Of a stretch of DNA of 10,554 nt, positions 1,587-8,940 are shown piece after piece. The notes beneath the pieces were generated by a model. It was not told where the DNA came from and made no database searches. It worked only from the letters and a program-made list of their open reading frames with translations. The first letter of the stretch is position 1. Every line of letters begins with the position of its first letter. The DNA lies in the NCBI GenBank assembly GCA_044226625.1, contig JBGAGQ010000116.1, positions 1 through 10,554 on the forward strand. Direction: 5' to 3'. This DNA comes from Thermoanaerobaculia bacterium. Lineage in GTDB: Bacteria > Acidobacteriota > Thermoanaerobaculia > Multivoradales > UBA5704. Made by a program: the position numbers and the translations under genes.

Positions 1587-3293
1587 ATGGCCACGACTCG
1601 CCAAGCTCTGTGCAAGTTTCTGGTACCGCCGATGGCGGTCCTTCTGCTCGCGCCACCCACCCGGTCCGCAGCGGCTGAGATCGTGGCACTCCAAACCGGC
1701 CCTCTCGGAGGTCTCGAATCGATCGGCCCGCCCGTCTCGCCGGGCTCGGCCTTCCCGGCGCTCTCGGTGGAGGGACCGACGACAGGCACCACAGAAGATC
1801 AGGTTTTGTTGACGTGGGTATCGCCGAGTCCCGCGGGGCCGCGATTCGAGTTCTCCCGCTGGGCCGGTGGTGTATGGAGCTCACCGGTCACGATCGCGCC
1901 CAAGGTTGAAGTCGCCGGCCCTCCCGACCGGCCGGTGCTGGCAGTGATTGAAACGCAGGCGGTTCGGCGGACGCTGATCGCTCGGACGGGCGATGTCGTC
2001 GGCCGTAGTGCCGATGCCGGACGAAGCTGGGACCGGCTCCCAGCCCGGGAGCTCCCTTTCGCCTCGATGGTGGGTGGCGACGATGGGGCGTTCGCGTTTT
2101 GGCTGGCCTCGAATGGCGATGGAACAGCAAGGCTCCTGGGGACCCGGGTGCTCGCGGGCGAAAGTCTCCTGGATCCGCTCGTCGCCGACGGCTCCGGTAC
2201 GGCGGCGGCGATGACCTGGGACGGTCCGATCGTGGTCTACCGCGATCGGGATGCGACGGGGGCGGAAGATCTTTCGATCGTGCGGCGTGAGGCAGGGCGG
2301 TGGACGGCCCCCGGCGCGATCGCCCGGGAATGTTGGCGCCCTGAGAAGACGCCCGGCAGCGGCCCGGCGATCTCGGCATCTCGCCGTCGGATTGCCGTCG
2401 CCTGGTACAGCGAAGCGCAGGGATCGCCGGCCCTCTGGGTCGCTTTCTCGGGCGATGCGGGACGAACCTTCGGCGCCCCTGTGAAGGTGGACTCGTTAAC
2501 GAAGGGGCACGCACCGTGGGGACCGGTGGCGGTCGCTCTGGACGAGAAAGGAGATGCGTTGGTCCTTTGGCTAAGCCTCTCCGGCTCGACCGAGACGACA
2601 CTCCTCCTTTCGCGGGTTGCGGCCGACGGCCGGCGGGGTGAACCCGTCACCGTCGCCAGAGGTCGTTTGTCGAGCGCCAAAGGCGAGCCTCAGCTCGCGG
2701 TCGCGAACGGGCGCGCTGTGATCGCTTGGGTCGAAGGCGGTTCCGCTTCGGGAGTTCGCGTCGCGACTCTATTGCTCGCGGAAATTCCCCCTGCCCTCGA
2801 GGCAGCATCCCAAGGAGGGAAGGACGCCGTCGCGGAAGCGCCGTTGGGGCGTGGACGCGTGGGTGACACGCTGCCCGACCTTTCGGTCGATTCAGCCTCC
2901 GATCGGCGGGTTTCGCCCACCTCGCTCCGGGGCCGGGCGGTATTGCTGAACCTCTGGGCCACTTGGTGCGCGCCCTGCCTTGCCGAGATGCCCGAGCTGA
3001 GTGCCCTCGATGCCCGCTATCGCGCCAAGGGGCTAACCGTCGTCGGAGTGAACGGCGATGTCGAGGGAAGTGCAGAGAAGGTGCGCGCTTTCGTCGCAGC
3101 GCGGAAGTTGCCGTTCGAGGTCTGGCTCGATCCCGAGATGAGCTTCAACCGCGCCCTTCGAGTCCAGGGGTTGCCGACGACTTTCGTCATCGACCGCGCG
3201 GGACGCATCGCCACGCGCTTCGACCGTCCGATCACCGCGGAAGATCCGGAGCTTCTGCTGGCGATCGAGAAAGCATTGGGCGGCCCGAAATAG
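1587..3293 (+). CDS. Secreted fusion of an Asp-box/BNR-repeat (sialidase-like beta-propeller) domain and a C-terminal TlpA/ResA-type thioredoxin-like disulfide reductase, 568 aa
   Basis: N-terminal hydrophobic signal ending near AAA-E. Asp-boxes SADAGRSW (2007-2030) and SGDAGRTF (2448-2471). C-terminal LRGRAVLLNLWATWCAPCLAEMP (CxxC at 2967-2978) and the cis-Pro motif GLPTTFVIDRAG, both characteristic of TlpA-like proteins. Confidence 0.88.
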   Translation: MATTRQALCKFLVPPMAVLLLAPPTRSAAAEIVALQTGPLGGLESIGPPVSPGSAFPALSVEGPTTGTTEDQVLLTWVSPSPAGPRFEFSRWAGGVWSSPVTIAPKVEVAGPPDRPVLAVIETQAVRRTLIARTGDVVGRSADAGRSWDRLPARELPFASMVGGDDGAFAFWLASNGDGTARLLGTRVLAGESLLDPLVADGSGTAAAMTWDGPIVVYRDRDATGAEDLSIVRREAGRWTAPGAIARECWRPEKTPGSGPAISASRRRIAVAWYSEAQGSPALWVAFSGDAGRTFGAPVKVDSLTKGHAPWGPVAVALDEKGDALVLWLSLSGSTETTLLLSRVAADGRRGEPVTVARGRLSSAKGEPQLAVANGRAVIAWVEGGSASGVRVATLLLAEIPPALEAASQGGKDAVAEAPLGRGRVGDTLPDLSVDSASDRRVSPTSLRGRAVLLNLWATWCAPCLAEMPELSALDARYRAKGLTVVGVNGDVEGSAEKVRAFVAARKLPFEVWLDPEMSFNRALRVQGLPTTFVIDRAGRIATRFDRPITAEDPELLLAIEKALGGPK

Positions 3294-3326: not shown

Positions 3327-3959
3327 TCACCCCCCGGAGTTTCTCGCTTGGCCGGCCGACGGCTCGACGTCGCTCTGCTCCCGCGCCTCTTTCTTCTCTC
3401 TGGGACTGAAAGCCAAGCGAAGCAGCCACTTCTTTTCGTCCGGGATGAACAGTCGGTGGCGTGGCGCGTCGCCGAGGAACGCGCTCAGCCGGCTGGCCGA
3501 CGCCGAGAGGTCGCCAGAGAAAGGGTCTCCCCCCGAGGCGGTCGAAGCGTCGTTTTGACGGCTCTTGAGAAACGCGCGTCGCAACCATGCCACTTCGTCC
3601 GCCGCGGCCAAGGCGAAACGGTCCGCCGCGCCCCCTTCGAATTGGAGGAAGCGGGACGTGAGCTCGATCGATTGGCGGCGGAACTCCGCGGCTGAAATCC
3701 GGTCTCCGCTTTCTCGCACCTGAATCTCGTCGAGGTCTCGCCAGAGCTGCTTGTGATCGCGCACGTCGGCCATCTTGAGGCCGGGAATTCCGGCTTTGAA
3801 CTCCGGCTCCGTCGAACCCGACTTCGCCGTCGCCGGTGCTGTAGGCGGCGGTGTCTGGGCCAGTGCCGGATGGAGAGTTGGCCCTAGGCTCACGCAGCCG
3901 AGGGCCAGCAGAAGGTGCACCCTTCGGCCTGTTCTGGAAGGTCGTTCGGATCGGTTCAC
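3327..3959 (-). CDS. Hypothetical secreted protein, 210 aa
   Basis: GTG start overlaps the SCO stop (GTGA) and is preceded by a strong SD (GAAGGAGG). Signal-like N-terminus ending ALA-Q, then a Pro/Thr/Ala linker and a helical-looking body. No family recognised. Confidence 0.7.
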   Translation of the reverse strand: MNRSERPSRTGRRVHLLLALGCVSLGPTLHPALAQTPPPTAPATAKSGSTEPEFKAGIPGLKMADVRDHKQLWRDLDEIQVRESGDRISAAEFRRQSIELTSRFLQFEGGAADRFALAAADEVAWLRRAFLKSRQNDASTASGGDPFSGDLSASASRLSAFLGDAPRHRLFIPDEKKWLLRLAFSPREKKEAREQSDVEPSAGQARNSGG

Positions 3960-4705
3960 TGTGAATTTCCTCCTTCCTCGACGTTCTCCGTCGCAGGACG
4001 TCCCGGATCGCCGGGGAGGCTGCCGATGGTCCCTTCCTGCCCCGCCTCAGGCGCCATCCAGGCGAGGAGGCGGGCGATTTGCCGAGGATCGGCTAGCGAC
4101 GGCGATGCCCCCCACCATCCCCTCGGTTCGTTACCCATTTTGACCGTGCCGATGTGATTCGTCAGGTCCGCGTCCAACACCGGGTCGCTCCAGGCGAAAC
4201 CGAGGTTCTGGCGAAGGGTCTCCAGGTCTTCGGGATTCCCGGTCAGGAAGAGCCAACCCGGCCCGACGCCGAAACGCCTGGCGTAGTCGGCCAGGACTTC
4301 GGGGGTGTCCTTGTCGGGCTCCATGGTGAACGAGTAGAACCAGACGTCTTTTCCCATTCGATCGCCGAGCATTCGTTGAACCTTCACGAGGTTCTGGGTG
4401 ATGCCCGGTCACCGTCCCTTGCAGTTGGCATACATGAAGTTGATCAGGACGATCTTGCCTTTGAGGAGATCGTCGTAGAACCGAACGTTCTTGCCTTCCT
4501 GGGTTTTGAGAACTACGTCCGGGAAGCGCTCCGCGAACGGATTCGGGCTTGAGATTCGGGTGTCCCGCGCGAGCGAGTCTTGGGCCGGCGAAACCGCCAC
4601 GGCCTGGGCGCGAGCCCAGACCGTGGCGGCAAACAGAACGGCCACGGCTACGATCGCGACGCGGAGAACCCGGAGCTTAGGGTTCCGCGACGCAGGCGAC
4701 GTCAT
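3956..4705 (-). CDS. SCO1/SenC family copper chaperone, predicted selenoprotein (CxxxU, Sec99), 249 aa
   Basis: Track ORFs 4409..4705 and 3956..4387 are in the same frame, separated only by TGA (4411-4409) and 7 sense codons: ...FPDVVLKTQEGKNVRFYDDLLKGKIVLINFMYANCKGR[TGA]PGITQNLVKVQRMLGDRMGKDVWFYSFTMEPDKDTPEVLADYA...GWLFLTG...NHIG. The TGA occupies the second Cys of the SCO CxxxCP motif, and the DTPE motif and His ligand are intact. SD GGGAGG at 4720-4715. Confidence 0.88.
4365..4408 (-). promoter_or_regulatory. Putative bacterial SECIS element of the SCO gene
   Basis: mRNA directly after UGA: CCGGGCAU-CACCCA-GAACCU-CGUGA-AGGUUC-AACGA-AUGCUCGG. This gives an 8-bp lower stem (one G-U), an internal loop, a 6-bp upper stem, and a 5-nt loop with G at position 2 starting 20 nt after UGA. 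Confidence 0.75.
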
Positions 4706-7520
4706 GGTCGACGACCTCCCATAGGAGCATCATGGCGTGATCTTCGTGGACCGTGTTGTGACAGTGCATCGGGTATTCGTTGAGCCAGTCCCGTTGACGG
4801 ATCGTCAACGTGACGGAGTCGTTCGGGCGTAGCAGCGCTACGTCCTTTCTCATCTGCTCGAAATCGGGTGGGGTGGCCCCGTCGCGGATCTCGAACTGGT
4901 GTTCCTCCATGTGAATGTGAATCGGATGCTCCCAGTCCCGGGAGGCGTTCTTGATCGTCCAGCGTTCGGCCGTTCCACGTTTCACCTGGAAGCGTGGGAG
5001 GAAGTCGAACAGCTGACCGTTGATCGTCCAGCCGCCGTTTTTGTTGTCGAAGGCGAACGTCCTTTCGCAGACGATCTCGCTTTCCTGGATCTCCGGCTTC
5101 TCCCGCATTACCGCTGGTACTCGGCTTGGATCGTTGACCGCCGGTCCGATTACGCGGAACTGCATCACCTTCTTCGCGAGGTCGGAGGTCATGGGTGCGA
5201 AGACCCCAGTGCGACCCTTGCCGCTCGTTTGGTCGGCGATGTCCATCAGATTGATCCGGGCGCCGGCCGGGAAATGGCTGAAGTCGATGACCAGCTCCAT
5301 CCGTTCGGCCGGGGCGATCGTCGTTTCGTCGATCGTGAGCGGCTGATGGAGGAGGTTGCCGTCATTGGCGATCAGCGTGAGATCCGTTGCCGATTCGTCG
5401 CTCGCGCACTCGACGCCGTCGGTTCCGACCGGACAGGTCTTCAGGGTGTAGATTCTCGACGGCCCGGCGTTGACGATGCGGAACCTGTACTTCCGGCGCT
5501 GGACGCGCATGAACGGAGTCACCGCACCGTTGACCGTGATGTGCTCTCCGAGGAATCCGTCGAGGTCGAACGGGTTGAACATCAGTTTGTGGGTGATCGG
5601 GTCGAACTGCTTGTCCGCGAGCAGGAGCGGAACGTCGAACCTGCCGCTCGGAAGGTGGAAGGCCGCGGGGTTCGGGTCGCGCTCGTTGCCCGAATCGAGG
5701 GTGTCGTAGGCGAGGAAGTTGCCGGCGAGGCCCTTGTAGACGTTCTGGGATGTGAAGTCGGGGCGGTGGTCGTGGTACCAGAGCTGGCCCAGAACCTCCC
5801 GAGGATCGCCCCCGGCAGGGTACATGGAGTAGTGAAAGTCCATGTAGTTGCCGGTGTCGAAGAACATCAGCGGCCCGCCGTCGCTCTCCGGCGCGGAGTG
5901 GAAGTTGTGCAGGTGAGTCGAGATCTGCGGGATGCCGAAACCGCCGTTTCCGGGGAAGGTAGCCGGCAGGTTGTTGTGAATGCGCACCACGATCGGCTGG
6001 CCATAGCGCTCGCGGAATGTGGGGCCGGGGCTGAAGGTATGAAACTTGTTGCCGTAACCCCAGATGGTCGACGGCTGCATCAGGTCGGGATGGAAGAGGT
6101 GCTTGACCGGCCGCACGAACATCTCGTACTGCTTGACCGGACGGAATTCGGCATACCGCTGGAGAGCGCGATCTGGGGGCCGGTTGGCTCCCGGTTCGCC
6201 AGCATAGAGGTTACATCCGTCCGTCGGATCGCTCGCCGGCGGATGCTCGGCTTTGCAGTTGTCGTTCGGATCGACGGCAGGACGGAGCGCAAAGACACGC
6301 ACCGAAGCGTCTGCGTCGGGTGGGGTCGGAACCCGCTGGGCAAACGGACGAAGGGCGAGTTTGGGAGTGTTGCAAAACTCTCCGGTCTCCCGGAGACAGA
6401 CGAAATTCTCGACGATGTCGGTGTCGACAGTGGGGACGGCGATGGCGTCGGCTGCGATTGACCCCGCACGGGGGTCGATGAGAATCGGTCAGACAACGAA
6501 TGGAGGCCCGTCCAGTGCCTCGTTTTCGGCCGTCACCGGATTGTCGGGTCGGGCGGGGTTTCCGAAACCATCCACCTGGCGGCGGGTCCTCACGGTGACG
6601 CAGACCTGTCCGCCTTCGTCCGGCTCCACTCCCGGAATGTCGTTACGCGGGTCGGGGTTCGGAAGGCCGTGAGCCCCCGGCAGCGCGCCGTGGAGCACCA
6701 CTTGATTGGCTCCCTGCCCTGCGACCATGTCGCCGCTCGCCACGTCCAAGACCTCGCGGACCGTTCGGAACAGAGGGGTTCCGTCGGTATCGAATCCGTT
6801 GCGGGCCGCCTGCTTGGCCATCCGCGCCTGGCAGGCGGGCGTTGCGACGTCCGGCCCGTCCCAGGTGACGAAGACGATCCGCCAAAGCTGAAGCGGGTTT
6901 TGCGTGAGGTAGCCGTTGCCCGTGTCGAAGATGTTGTCCTGACGGCGGTTGCACGGCCCCGGATCGAGAAGGTCGCCCGAGGTGGCGCTGCCGCCGCAGC
7001 CGGCGACCGGGTTTGCCCCCGGTTTGGTGCGCGGGAACAGGAAGACGAAGGAGCGGTTCGTCAGGTCCTTGGTCTCTTGGTTCTTGAACGCGCTTTCGAA
7101 GAAGAAGGCCGGGGGATCGGGATAGAACAGCATTTCACCGGCGGCGTTCGTTCCCAGATTGTGGATCTTGATCCGGCTGTCAGCCAGGAACCGGCTGTCG
7201 GGCGCGGGTCCAGGCGCCGTCTGGGCGTCGCCGGGGCCGCGGAAAAAGGCCCCGAACCGGCTCGGAGCCGTGGCGCCGTTCTCTTGGCTCCGCATCTCCG
7301 CCGCGTCGATGCCGTTGGCGCTGTAGAAAGCGTCCGAGAAATTGAAGCCCGGACCGCGCCCGGCTTCCGGACCGCTTTGGACGAAGTCCGCCTCCCCGGG
7401 GGCGAACACGTCACCTCCGATCGTATTCTGGGCGCGCGCGATGCCGAAAGGCGCACCCGCCATCCAAACGACGGCGAGTATGCTCGCCGCCCGGCGACAC
7501 CTCCACCTACGTCCCTTCAT
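4677..7520 (-). CDS. Secreted multicopper oxidase (bilirubin oxidase/CotA-like) with a fused N-terminal unknown domain; predicted selenoprotein (Sec344), 947 aa
   Basis: Track ORFs 6489..7598 and 4677..6302 are in the same frame, joined by TGA (6491-6489) and 62 stop-free codons (GPPFVV[TGA]PILIDPRAGSIAADA...FVCLRETGEFCNTPKLALRPFAQRVPTPP). All four Cu motifs are present: HLH (5915-5907), WYHDH, HPIHIH and HCHNTVHEDHAMM. ATG 7520 has the SD GAGGAAGGAGG (7536-7526) and a signal peptide ending ARA-Q. The MCO identity is very secure; the read-through fusion is inferred. Confidence 0.82.
6455..6488 (-). promoter_or_regulatory. Putative bacterial SECIS element of the MCO-fusion gene
   Basis: mRNA directly after UGA: C-CGAUU-CUCAUC-GACCCC-CGUGC-GGGGUC-AAUCG. 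This gives a 5-bp lower stem, a bulge, a 6-bp upper stem, and a 5-nt loop CGUGC starting 18 nt after UGA. The loop core is the same as in the SCO element. Confidence 0.72.
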
Positions 7521-7660
7521 GAGACCCTCCTTCCTCGATGACCGGCTTCGTTTCGGAGCCGGTTGAAATGGCTTCTTGATGGCGACTGAGGACGGCAAGT
7601 GGGCCGAAGTGAGGCGTCCTTCTTCGGTCGGCCCGGCCGCCTAGTTTTGGAATCCGGTAT

Positions 7661-8341
7661 CTATTGGAGCCGTGGTTCGCGTCGAGCCCAGAGCGTGCCG
7701 GCGATCGCCCCGACCAGCGACATCGCGGTGGTGGCACCCGGGTGCCAGACTGCGAGATGGACGAGATCGGAACGTGGGCAGGCGAGGTGCCAAACGACGT
7801 CGGCGAGCAAGCCGGCCCCAGCGCCCGCGAGCGCCCCGGCCCAGAACGGGCGTAGAGGAAAGGCCCGGCGGGCAAGCCAAAGAGCGACCGCCAAGTGGGG
7901 TAGCGCGATCGCTGTTTCCATCAGCGCGCATTGCGCCCCAACCGCGGCGCCGTCGGGCGGCGCGATGCCCGCGCCGGACCCCTGCCAGATCACCACGCCG
8001 CGAGCGATCTCCAGCACCAGCGCCAAGCCGAGCGTGAGGGCCGCCTTACCCGCGCCGATCCCCAGGCCCGGTACGGCTTCGCGCATCGCGAGCCAGACGA
8101 GGAGCAGGCCGACCAGCCACTGGAAAGCGGCGCAGCCGAGCTTCGGCAGCGAAAGAGGCGCTTGGTCGCCGGAGAGCGCGGCGATCCATTGAGCCGCCAG
8201 AGGGACGGCGAGAGCCGGGAGGGCCAGCGCCAATGCGCGTCGCCAAGGGGGGGCGAGGGAAGGCCTCGAGGCGAAATCTCCGCGAATCGCGAGCCGCAGC
8301 CCAGCGGGAACCGGTTCGAGGTCGAGCGCACGGCGCTTCAT
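7661..8341 (-). CDS. NrsF/DUF1109-like membrane anti-sigma factor, 226 aa
   Basis: ATGA-coupled to the ECF sigma gene. N-terminal 'DLEPV' and 'RPSLAPPWRR' segments, about 6 hydrophobic helices, and the motifs 'REAVPG', 'AQCALME', 'ARRAFPLRP..AGALAG' and 'HLACP...HLAVWH' resemble NrsF-family proteins with two conserved Cys. Confidence 0.78.
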   Translation of the reverse strand: MKRRALDLEPVPAGLRLAIRGDFASRPSLAPPWRRALALALPALAVPLAAQWIAALSGDQAPLSLPKLGCAAFQWLVGLLLVWLAMREAVPGLGIGAGKAALTLGLALVLEIARGVVIWQGSGAGIAPPDGAAVGAQCALMETAIALPHLAVALWLARRAFPLRPFWAGALAGAGAGLLADVVWHLACPRSDLVHLAVWHPGATTAMSLVGAIAGTLWARREPRLQ

Positions 8342-8940
8342 CGGATTCCATCCTCTACGAGTCGCTCCCGCAGGGCGCCGATCGCCCGGTGCACACGAAC
8401 CTTCGCCGCGGTCTCCGAAATTCCGAGAACGATGGACGCTTCGCGGATCGATAGCCCCTCGGCGTGTCGCAGCCAGAGAATCTCACGCCCCTTTGCGCTG
8501 ATCTCGCACAACGCGCGGGCGAGCGCGATTCGGTCGAGCGTTCCGGCCAATCGGGCGAGCGCCGGATCGTCGAGTAGCTCGTCGGTCGGATGCACCTCGT
8601 GGCTCGCTAGGCGAAGTTGACTGCGCTGGGCCATCAGGCCGACGTGGCGGGCAATTGCGAAGAGCCACGGCCGAACCGGCTCGCCAGAGAGGTAGCTCTG
8701 GCGTGACCGGTGGAGTTGCAGAAACGTGTTCTGCACCGAATCCTCCACGTCCACCCCCGGGGGAACGAGGGTTCGCAGATAGCCGCGAACGGAGCGTGCC
8801 AACCGACCGTAGAGCTCGTTGAACGCGGATTCGTCTCCCGCCAGGTAAGAGCTCATCAGGGCCGGCAGGTCCTCGGGCAGATCGTCGGACGCGCCTTCTG
8901 AGGGGTCGGAAGGCGACACTTCGTGCCGCTCGACTTTCAT
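8338..8940 (-). CDS. ECF-type RNA polymerase sigma-70 factor (SigF/ECF16-like by its partner), 200 aa
   Basis: Region 2 motifs 'GDESAFNELY', 'VEDSVQNTFLQLH' and 'VRPWLFAIARH', and region 4 'EGLSIREASIVLGISETAAKVRVHRA'. SD GGAG lies 5 nt before ATG 8940. Confidence 0.93.
   Translation of the reverse strand: MKVERHEVSPSDPSEGASDDLPEDLPALMSSYLAGDESAFNELYGRLARSVRGYLRTLVPPGVDVEDSVQNTFLQLHRSRQSYLSGEPVRPWLFAIARHVGLMAQRSQLRLASHEVHPTDELLDDPALARLAGTLDRIALARALCEISAKGREILWLRHAEGLSIREASIVLGISETAAKVRVHRAIGALRERLVEDGIR

Follow-up and report, generated by a model that had tools for sequence, protein, structure and literature searches.

A stretch of 10,554 nucleotides (nt) from contig JBGAGQ010000116.1 of a Thermoanaerobaculia (Acidobacteriota) assembly (GCA_044226625.1), hereafter the window, encodes on its minus strand a multicopper oxidase (MCO) whose reading frame is interrupted by an in-frame UGA. 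From comparison with predicted relatives, this UGA is very probably a genuine selenocysteine (Sec) codon and the frame from 7520 to 4677 very probably specifies a single polypeptide. The best explanation of the locus as a whole, which we consider likely to be right, is an exported selenoprotein of 947 residues in which an N-terminal domain, here termed domain X, carries Sec344 and is fused to the oxidase, and which forms a module with the product of the adjacent SCO1/SenC-like gene (SCO). The pairing of Sec with Cys, the fusion, the X/MCO/SCO module and the occurrence of the Sec machinery in the genome are shown by comparison of predicted genes and proteins. The decoding mechanism would be the ordinary bacterial one, and it is the protein families that lie outside current lists.

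The in-frame UGA and its conservation

The minus-strand frame that begins at ATG 7520 contains a sole in-frame TGA, at 6491-6489, and when this codon is read as Sec (U) the product runs ...NEALDGPPFVV-U344-PILIDPRAGSIAADA..., the immediate context of the residue being ...GPPFVV-U344-PILIDPRAGS.... This reading had been proposed in an earlier note made from the letters of the window, and all of its statements on the sequence of the 947-residue frame proved correct. The stretch of 186 nt that separates the TGA from the GTG at 6302 (6488-6303) is stop-free and in frame, it encodes both DPRAGSIAADA...CLRETGEFC and PFAQRVPTPP, and among its 62 codons there is no ATG, nor any GTG or TTG. The ATG at 7520 is accompanied by an AGGAGG and by a likely signal peptide, with a basic n-region, a hydrophobic core and ARA-Q at its end as judged by eye, and orthologs have a like N-terminal layout ahead of AQNTIGGD; by eye, the GTG at 6302 lacks a Shine-Dalgarno-like purine run. 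A plain list of open reading frames splits the gene into two pieces (6489..7598 and 4677..6302), and the window's own public record has separate gene calls of 343 and 541 amino acids.

Related loci were compared at the position of the UGA. In the 32 examined, the U344 column was readable in 27 rows, the other five being too short (three) or outside the reading pattern but Cys by tblastn (two). TGA was found in 19 of the 27 (18 distinct rows, as L016 and L022 represent one genome) and TGC (Cys) in the remaining 8; the recurrence of TGA in an identical motif in 19 rows is therefore more than chance. Further TGA forms came from a scan of the phylum (L056, L057 and L063), and an ortholog of 76% identity in G027, a genome of the same order but a different family, has TGA in ...GPPFVVUPILIDPRAGS.... 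Scans of genome and metagenome collections supplied 26 additional loci. Carriers are mostly Thermoanaerobaculia (Acidobacteriota) metagenome-assembled genomes (MAGs), together with one MAG each labelled Deltaproteobacteria, Myxococcota and Ca. Multivoradales. Apparent frameshifts were noticed in L022, in the 3' end of the MCO and in SCO (about 6800-7700), and in the MCO of L030 (about 6000-6100), and these are probably assembly errors.

The earlier note had suggested that homologs of residues 31-385 be searched for Cys at the U344 column and for uninterrupted fusions to an MCO, and both exist. A database search gave P0002, an uninterrupted protein of 949 amino acids with 67% identity that reads ...PPYVA-C-PLLIDPRGGS..., and thus has Cys in the xxCP motif. 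TGC at the U344 column is found in P0002 and in 7 fused orthologous loci, and uninterrupted X-MCO fusions with Cys, of 949-954 amino acids, are represented by P0002, L027-L029, L033, L048 and L052. Nine database gene calls of about 590-606 amino acids start just 3' of the TGA position and are therefore split annotations of Sec forms. In NCBI, Sec-form orthologs appear as 'multicopper oxidase domain-containing protein' of 594 or 631 amino acids, that is, split, and the Cys forms at 949-950 amino acids.

The TGA might also be due to a lesion in a pseudogene or to an error of assembly or sequencing, and the sequence does come from a MAG (6.6 Mb, 133 contigs, 97.9% complete, 5.5% contamination) while the related loci L022 and L030 contain frameshifts. 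This explanation is highly improbable given that independent assemblies and metagenomes yield the same TGA and motif in 18 distinct loci, and that the codons downstream are under purifying selection. In the 62 codons past the TGA, the differences between the window and 23 orthologs number 398, 235 and 707 at codon positions 1, 2 and 3, the pattern of a sequence that evolves as coding.

The public records, with two genes called, agree with the view that the TGA is a true stop, which would leave a 343-residue truncated X and an oxidase initiated separately by translational coupling or reinitiation; so do a GTG 11 codons after the TGA in many orthologs and the statistically unremarkable hairpin discussed below. 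A true stop is nevertheless improbable. No start codon within the 62 codons is conserved across orthologs, the window has none of the three kinds there, and the +11 GTG is missing from the window and 6 other TGA forms (7 of the 17 TGA forms). The GTG at 6302 has no Shine-Dalgarno sequence and the oxidase alone would have no signal peptide. A stop would also cut a conserved domain, as about 45 conserved residues past the U column (P..DPRxG....DA....F.CL..TG..C) belong to X and are present in stand-alone members without an MCO, and Cys stands in the exact column of homologs that include the 949-residue fusions. The N-terminal homologs thus do not end at this codon and the oxidase has no conserved start of its own, so that the earlier proposal stands on both counts.

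Since any sense reading of the TGA leaves the frame open, the codon might instead be read as Trp, Gly or Cys through a variant code or near-cognate suppression. We regard this as hardly credible, as a TGA terminates the SCO gene, the frames of SelA and SelB have no internal TGA, and the genome has the full Sec machinery. The corresponding column of the domain X alignment described below (alignment A4) also has Cys in 41 of 79 rows, Gly in one row and Trp in none, with Trp occurring in a protein outside this alignment, P0054.

The components needed to decode UGA as Sec were all found in the window's own genome above curated cut-offs, SelA at 353 bits, SelB at 315, SelD at 333 and tRNA-Sec at 70.9. 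SelD (L010, G000:C93:45915-46859) is itself a predicted selenoprotein with one TGA (...TTGG-U-AAKVGPG...) and a long stem-loop after the UGA. SelA is encoded by 5 of 5 further genomes with a TGA form as well; in one of them, G440, it lies on contig 1 of an assembly of about 5.2 Mb, the record L031 being a one-chromosome assembly of 5.12 Mb. It was found equally in 5 of 5 Cys-form genomes, and the idea that the Cys forms come from genomes that have lost the Sec trait was rejected on that ground.

The UGA at 6491-6489 would accordingly be decoded by SelA, SelB, SelD and tRNA-Sec, aided by a hairpin that starts 12 nt downstream and is a candidate selenocysteine insertion sequence (SECIS). In bacterial SECIS elements the apical loop lies about 16-37 nt from the UGA and has a G early in the loop. 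The 6-base-pair stem is the same in all TGA-form orthologs, where flanking third positions vary, and the loop CGUGC is found in every ortholog except L031 (CGGGC). A distant stand-alone Sec form (L017) retains the stem, whose 3' arm is there displaced by one base with respect to the reading frame, and L063 has a 7-base-pair version with a GGU loop. A SECIS consensus shared with the SelD hairpin of the same genome is not claimed, as the apical loop predicted for the latter is different and ambiguous.

Domain X and the fused oxidase

The C-terminal part of the protein is, by its sequence, a three-domain MCO of the bilirubin-oxidase/CotA type. The C-terminal piece matches the Pfam families PF07731 (53.4 bits) and PF07732 (26.2 bits) above their cut-offs, and PF00394 slightly below its cut-off (20.9 bits, cut-off 21). 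Residues ~461-947 align in PDB with Myrothecium bilirubin oxidase (E 1e-55) and Bacillus subtilis CotA (E 4e-40), and the four copper motifs (HLH, HDH, HPIHIH and HCHNTVHEDHAMM) line up with their counterparts in bilirubin oxidase. The type-1 copper Cys, in HCHNTVHEDH, is encoded by TGT, which confirms the earlier note's placement of Sec outside the copper core. A model of the full-length protein has a mean predicted local distance difference test score (pLDDT) of 67 and is of low quality across the linker and oxidase domain 1.

Domain X was characterized by a full-library search with residues 31-390, with representative relatives taken at E ≤ 1e-3. There were 99 of these, 48 of them at ≤ 1e-10, and they are mostly secreted stand-alone proteins of 250-430 amino acids with the public name 'hypothetical protein'. 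In the U column of alignment A4 (79 rows), there are 41 Cys, 6 Sec for which the DNA was seen, 7 Ala, Phe or Gly and 1 fragment. A further 24 gene calls stop one residue before this column (...PWVV, ...PWVI, ...PRYVV); these were read as proteins, with the DNA unseen, and are most simply explained as truncated at a TGA. By this alignment Sec344 lies inside domain X and away from any domain boundary, in a motif that reads W/F-V-V-[U/C]-P...DPRxG. Residue 341 is W, F or Y, and the nearly invariant positions are F145, P163, R193, Q194, Y204, N241, G242, D246, G247 and P249. Two Cys residues past the Sec, C375 and C383, are absent together in some members, which suggests that they pair in a disulfide, probably a structural one, and that Sec344 is left as the lone reactive residue.

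In the X tree, Sec forms occur in one half only, where 50 rows comprise 30 Sec and 19 Cys, and the other half, of 29 rows, has no Sec. Parsimony gives at least 10 changes between Sec and Cys, at least 3 of them forced by well-supported branches, for a tree from a quick search with a midpoint root. P0054 (701 amino acids, outside A4) is an X-MCO fusion that has Trp at the Sec/Cys column. This Trp, together with the Ala, Phe or Gly of the 7 stand-alone relatives, indicates that part of the family works without a chalcogen. Six stand-alone X proteins (P0034, P0047, P0048, P0073, P0075 and P0077) have C-terminal tails ending in ...W/F-x-x-G-C-x, which resemble an anchoring or sorting motif.

No family was found in Pfam and NCBIfam for X or nine relatives, and a search of NCBIfam returned 0 families for domain X, 7 relatives and the SCO-like protein. 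The best match of X in a sequence profile search of PDB had an E of 0.23. An AlphaFold2 model of X alone has a mean pLDDT of 84.4 and a predicted template modelling score (pTM) of 0.86; the best structural relative of this model in Foldseek had an E of 1.5, and VIA-align returned 0 of 48,161 chains at Z ≥ 2 and 0 of 91 in another run, a total blank that is unusual against the stated noise level and is to be taken as no match found rather than as proof of a new fold. A protein atlas search with residues 31-395 of the Cys homolog P0002 gave no usable match. The family is sparse, with a member in 7 of 401 sampled genomes of the phylum.

The SCO1/SenC-like gene and the surrounding operon

The gene that overlaps the end of the X-MCO gene encodes a protein that matches PF02630 at 63.9 bits (cut-off 22.8) and has its motif at the canonical place. 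Its alignment also contains an invariant His (H145 of alignment A6). SCO1/SenC chaperones have a CxxxC motif and a His, and the window protein differs in that a predicted Sec replaces the second Cys (C-K-G-R-U-P). The motif was read in 20 loci, with TGA in 12 and Cys in 8, and L025 and L031 bring the TGA loci to 14. The candidate SECIS hairpin of this gene has a z of -2.47, with 4 of 200 shuffles folding as well; it is invariant in all orthologs, and the distant Cys forms L018 and L019 lack it. The hairpins of the SCO and X-MCO genes are of like design, with a 6-base-pair stem and a CGUGN loop.

Where both X and SCO were readable, 14 loci are Sec/Sec, while 6 fused loci and 3 split systems are Cys/Cys. 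L022 too is likely Sec/Sec, in spite of a frameshifted assembly. A complex prediction for X and SCO of a Cys ortholog (L029) gave no verdict (score 0.00).

In G009, G311 and G015 (L064, L065 and L066), the MCO, an SCO with CxxxC and a stand-alone X with Cys are encoded, in that order, by three consecutive separate genes. X, MCO and the SCO1/SenC chaperone form a conserved module; here X is fused to the MCO and the chaperone likewise has a predicted Sec (C-x3-U), and in the genomes with the split arrangement the three are encoded separately, all with Cys. A more distant fusion of X (Sec) and MCO, followed by SCO, is found in G167:C7 (L067/L063). On gene comparison this occurrence of fused and split arrangements, of the Rosetta-stone kind, is a stronger argument for the module than is the Sec/Cys co-variation of its members. 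Domain X is predicted to be a new selenoprotein family, which in this locus is joined to an MCO and has as its partner an Sco with a predicted Sec of its own.

On the minus strand the order of genes is ECF (extracytoplasmic function) sigma factor, NrsF-like anti-sigma factor, X-MCO, SCO1/SenC-like gene and a 210-residue gene (coordinates are given in the table). The arrangement suggests stress-responsive control of the X-MCO/SCO operon by the sigma factor and its NrsF-type partner. In L022 and L034, homologs of the 210-residue protein (...EPEF.PGIPGLKMADVRDH...) are likewise encoded 3' of SCO, which makes its gene a probable fourth member of the operon. An AhpC/TSA-redoxin gene follows the split cluster in two genomes (L064:9678-10751 and L065:2543-3547). 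In an ortholog of the fusion (L026:3974-6940), a long Ser-Asp repeat (SDSDSD...) lies between the two linker cysteines (DNCKA...DGC).

Table. Positions of the features of the window, numbered on its forward strand
Feature	Position	Strand	Remark
Whole predicted selenoprotein gene	4677..7520	-	947 codons and TAA stop at 4679-4677
Shine-Dalgarno-like AGGAGG	7526..7531	-	5 nt 5' of ATG 7520
Likely signal peptide, residues 1-30, MKGRRWRCRRAASILAVVWMAGAPFGIARA followed by Q	7431..7520	-	By eye
Domain X, residues 31-390, with predicted Sec344 and the C375/C383 pair	6351..7430	-	No family match
In-frame TGA, predicted Sec344, motif FVV-U-P	6489..6491	-	TGA in orthologs, Cys in homologs
Candidate SECIS hairpin of X-MCO, GACCCC / loop CGUGC / GGGGUC	6460..6476	-	From 12 nt after the UGA
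Pro-rich linker, residues ~391-460, with two conserved Cys (DNCKAE...DGCNLY)	6141..6350	-	Low pLDDT in the full-length model
Three-domain MCO, residues ~461-947, HLHNFH, WYHDH, HPIHIH, HCHNTVHEDHAMM	4680..6140	-	Pfam and PDB alignments
SCO1/SenC-like gene, 249 residues, overlapping the end of the MCO gene	3956..4705	-	Stop TGA at 3958-3956; PF02630
In-frame TGA, predicted Sec99, C95-K-G-R-U99-P, second Cys position of CxxxC	4409..4411	-	TGA or Cys in orthologs
Candidate SECIS hairpin of SCO, GAACCU / loop CGUGA / AGGUUC	4378..4394	-	14 nt after the UGA
ECF-type sigma factor	8338..8940	-	Pfam PF04542, PF08281
NrsF-like ('negative regulator of sigma F') anti-sigma factor	7661..8341	-	PF06532
Conserved 210-residue gene	3327..3959	-	GTG start overlaps SCO stop (GTGA); no Pfam family
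568-residue protein with C-terminal AhpC/TSA-redoxin (TlpA-like) domain	1587..3293	+	Pfam

Weighing the interpretation and the role of Sec344

Several observations weigh against the interpretation given above, and the first of them concern the hairpin in the X-MCO gene. It folds no better than shuffled sequences (z 0.48 and 0.36), no covariation of its stem was seen among orthologs and no Rfam match was found within 3800-7700. Cys forms fold comparably at the same site (-6 to -17 kcal/mol) as the codons of the conserved DPRxG peptide (CCC...GGG) are able to pair with one another, and with such similar energies the hairpin was dropped as a discriminating argument. In a tree built from the columns upstream of Sec the window's Cys orthologs are nested in the Sec clade (99* support), so their hairpins may be leftovers, or 'fossils'. 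The self-pairing of DPRxG in GC-rich codons could also have pre-adapted the site to repeated switches from Cys to Sec. From its sequence and position, the hairpin at +12 nt fits a bacterial SECIS without discriminating Sec from Cys forms.

The remaining adverse points concern the origin of the contig, the module and the chemistry of X. The window is an entire 10.5-kb contig, the Sec machinery lies on other contigs of the MAG, and the gene was found in 0 of 7 genomes of the same genus; with the 5.5% contamination, this means that the binning of the contig could be wrong, a concern that is lessened by the presence of SelA in 5 of 5 other genomes with TGA forms. No RNA sequencing run containing the stretch turned up in a search of runs. 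In G167 the states are mixed, with Sec in X and Cys in SCO (CTGSCP), and this only mixed case seen led to the rejection of a strict Sec/Cys co-variation of the two proteins; moreover, the 6 fused loci with Cys in both proteins belong to a single close clade, which makes the co-variation a weak argument. Neither SCO nor MCO lies within about 1.5 kb of five stand-alone X genes (L017 and L056-L059), and X can therefore function in their absence. Nor is there, among the conserved residues of X in alignment A4, a His or Met that would indicate a copper site.

What Sec344 does is a separate question from how it is encoded. The product would be exported with its signal peptide, domain X, linker and bilirubin-oxidase/CotA-type MCO, from an operon placed under an envelope-stress switch of ECF sigma/NrsF type, and Sec344 would be a lone reactive selenolate. 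Together with the C-x3-U/His site of the Sco-like protein, it might act as a Cu(I) ligand and relay that either loads the oxidase or presents Cu(I) to it as a substrate; for Sec344 specifically, such a role in relaying copper is a tentative proposal. Alternatively, Sec344 might be redox-active, its electrons being passed to O2 by way of the oxidase. The earlier note had proposed, tentatively, a point of electron entry or a site that binds a substrate or metal. The most far-reaching version, which is speculative and which we consider unlikely as a whole, is a selenium-based copper pathway in which Sec344 of X and Sec99 of Sco pass Cu(I) or electrons to an envelope MCO, X being a new-fold family of selenoenzymes or metallochaperones in which Sec and Cys have been interconverted many times, and these being the first natural Se-Cu sites.

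A different role would be that Sec344 is catalytic in an autonomous redox enzyme, peroxidase- or thiol-oxidase-like, that is merely tethered to the MCO, with X having no part in a copper relay. This is somewhat doubtful and has evidence on both sides. X stands alone in 5 loci without nearby SCO or MCO, and it has nearly invariant polar residues (R193, Q194, Y204, N241 and D246) together with W, F or Y at 341. This set may resemble the Sec/Gln/Asn/Trp redox site of glutathione peroxidases. Genes for thioredoxin-fold proteins are frequent neighbors, with DUF255 (the thioredoxin-like gene that adjoins the X gene in L017) and AhpC/TSA-redoxin (in the window, L064 and L065), and most selenoproteins are thought to serve redox functions, according to a May 2026 review (PMC13188914). 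On the other hand, MCO, SCO and X are linked, fused or split, in every lineage close to the window, and there is no resolving partner of the CxxC/UxxC type beside Sec344.

Returning to the exported X-MCO selenoprotein, its features resemble those of listed selenoprotein families, which likewise have a conserved UGA, Cys homologs, a downstream hairpin and Sec machinery in the genome. Table 1 of the same review lists 119 prokaryotic selenoprotein families or subfamilies, and no entry there carries PF07731, PF07732 or PF02630, the Cu-oxidase and SCO1/SenC families (PMC13188914). The remark in the earlier note that no characterized MCO selenoprotein was known agrees with this inventory. A literature search found no MCO or Sco selenoprotein described, and a term search of the deep-Sep paper gave no copper, multicopper, laccase or SenC; the supplementary tables of that paper and of other selenoproteome papers might list candidates. 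One family in the table, 'DsbA-like form 2', has a DxxUP motif that ends in U-P as does that of X (PMC13188914). X and the SCO-like protein match no NCBIfam selenoprotein model, including those of the 'hypothetical' families in the table.

Among MCOs, the solved enzymes of bilirubin oxidase/CotA type align with the window's C-terminal part, where the type-1 Cys is ordinary. The window protein differs from them in its N-terminal Sec domain X of ~360 residues and its Cys-containing linker; no solved MCO searched has such an extension, and the PDB alignments begin at about residue 58-71 of the C-terminal piece. CueO has a Met-rich Cu(I) site, and MnxE/MnxF are accessory subunits, and in both cases an extra element by the type-1 copper binds a metal substrate or copper. 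The likeness to X is a functional analogy, with no relation in sequence or fold and with Met/His there versus Cys/Sec here. An SCO1/SenC gene also lies beside that of a periplasmic copper enzyme in mtoX-SCO1/senC-mauG operons, where it has been read, on circumstantial grounds, as a maturation chaperone (PMC5739008). The enzyme of that operon differs in being an SBP56 methanethiol oxidase and no MCO, and there is no X domain and no Sec in the chaperone.

If the interpretation is true, two families would be added to the prokaryotic selenoproteome, domain X, with an apparently new fold, and SCO1/SenC, and the X-MCO protein would be the first selenoprotein physically joined to an MCO. A systematic annotation error would also be corrected, since public records split the gene and, among the 79 representatives of the family, 24 appear to be cut short at the Sec codon. 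With its fused and split versions, the three-part module of X, Sco and oxidase lends itself to testing. A natural C-x3-U copper site, together with a lone Sec next to an O2-reducing copper enzyme, would provide handles on how copper or electrons are delivered to envelope oxidases.

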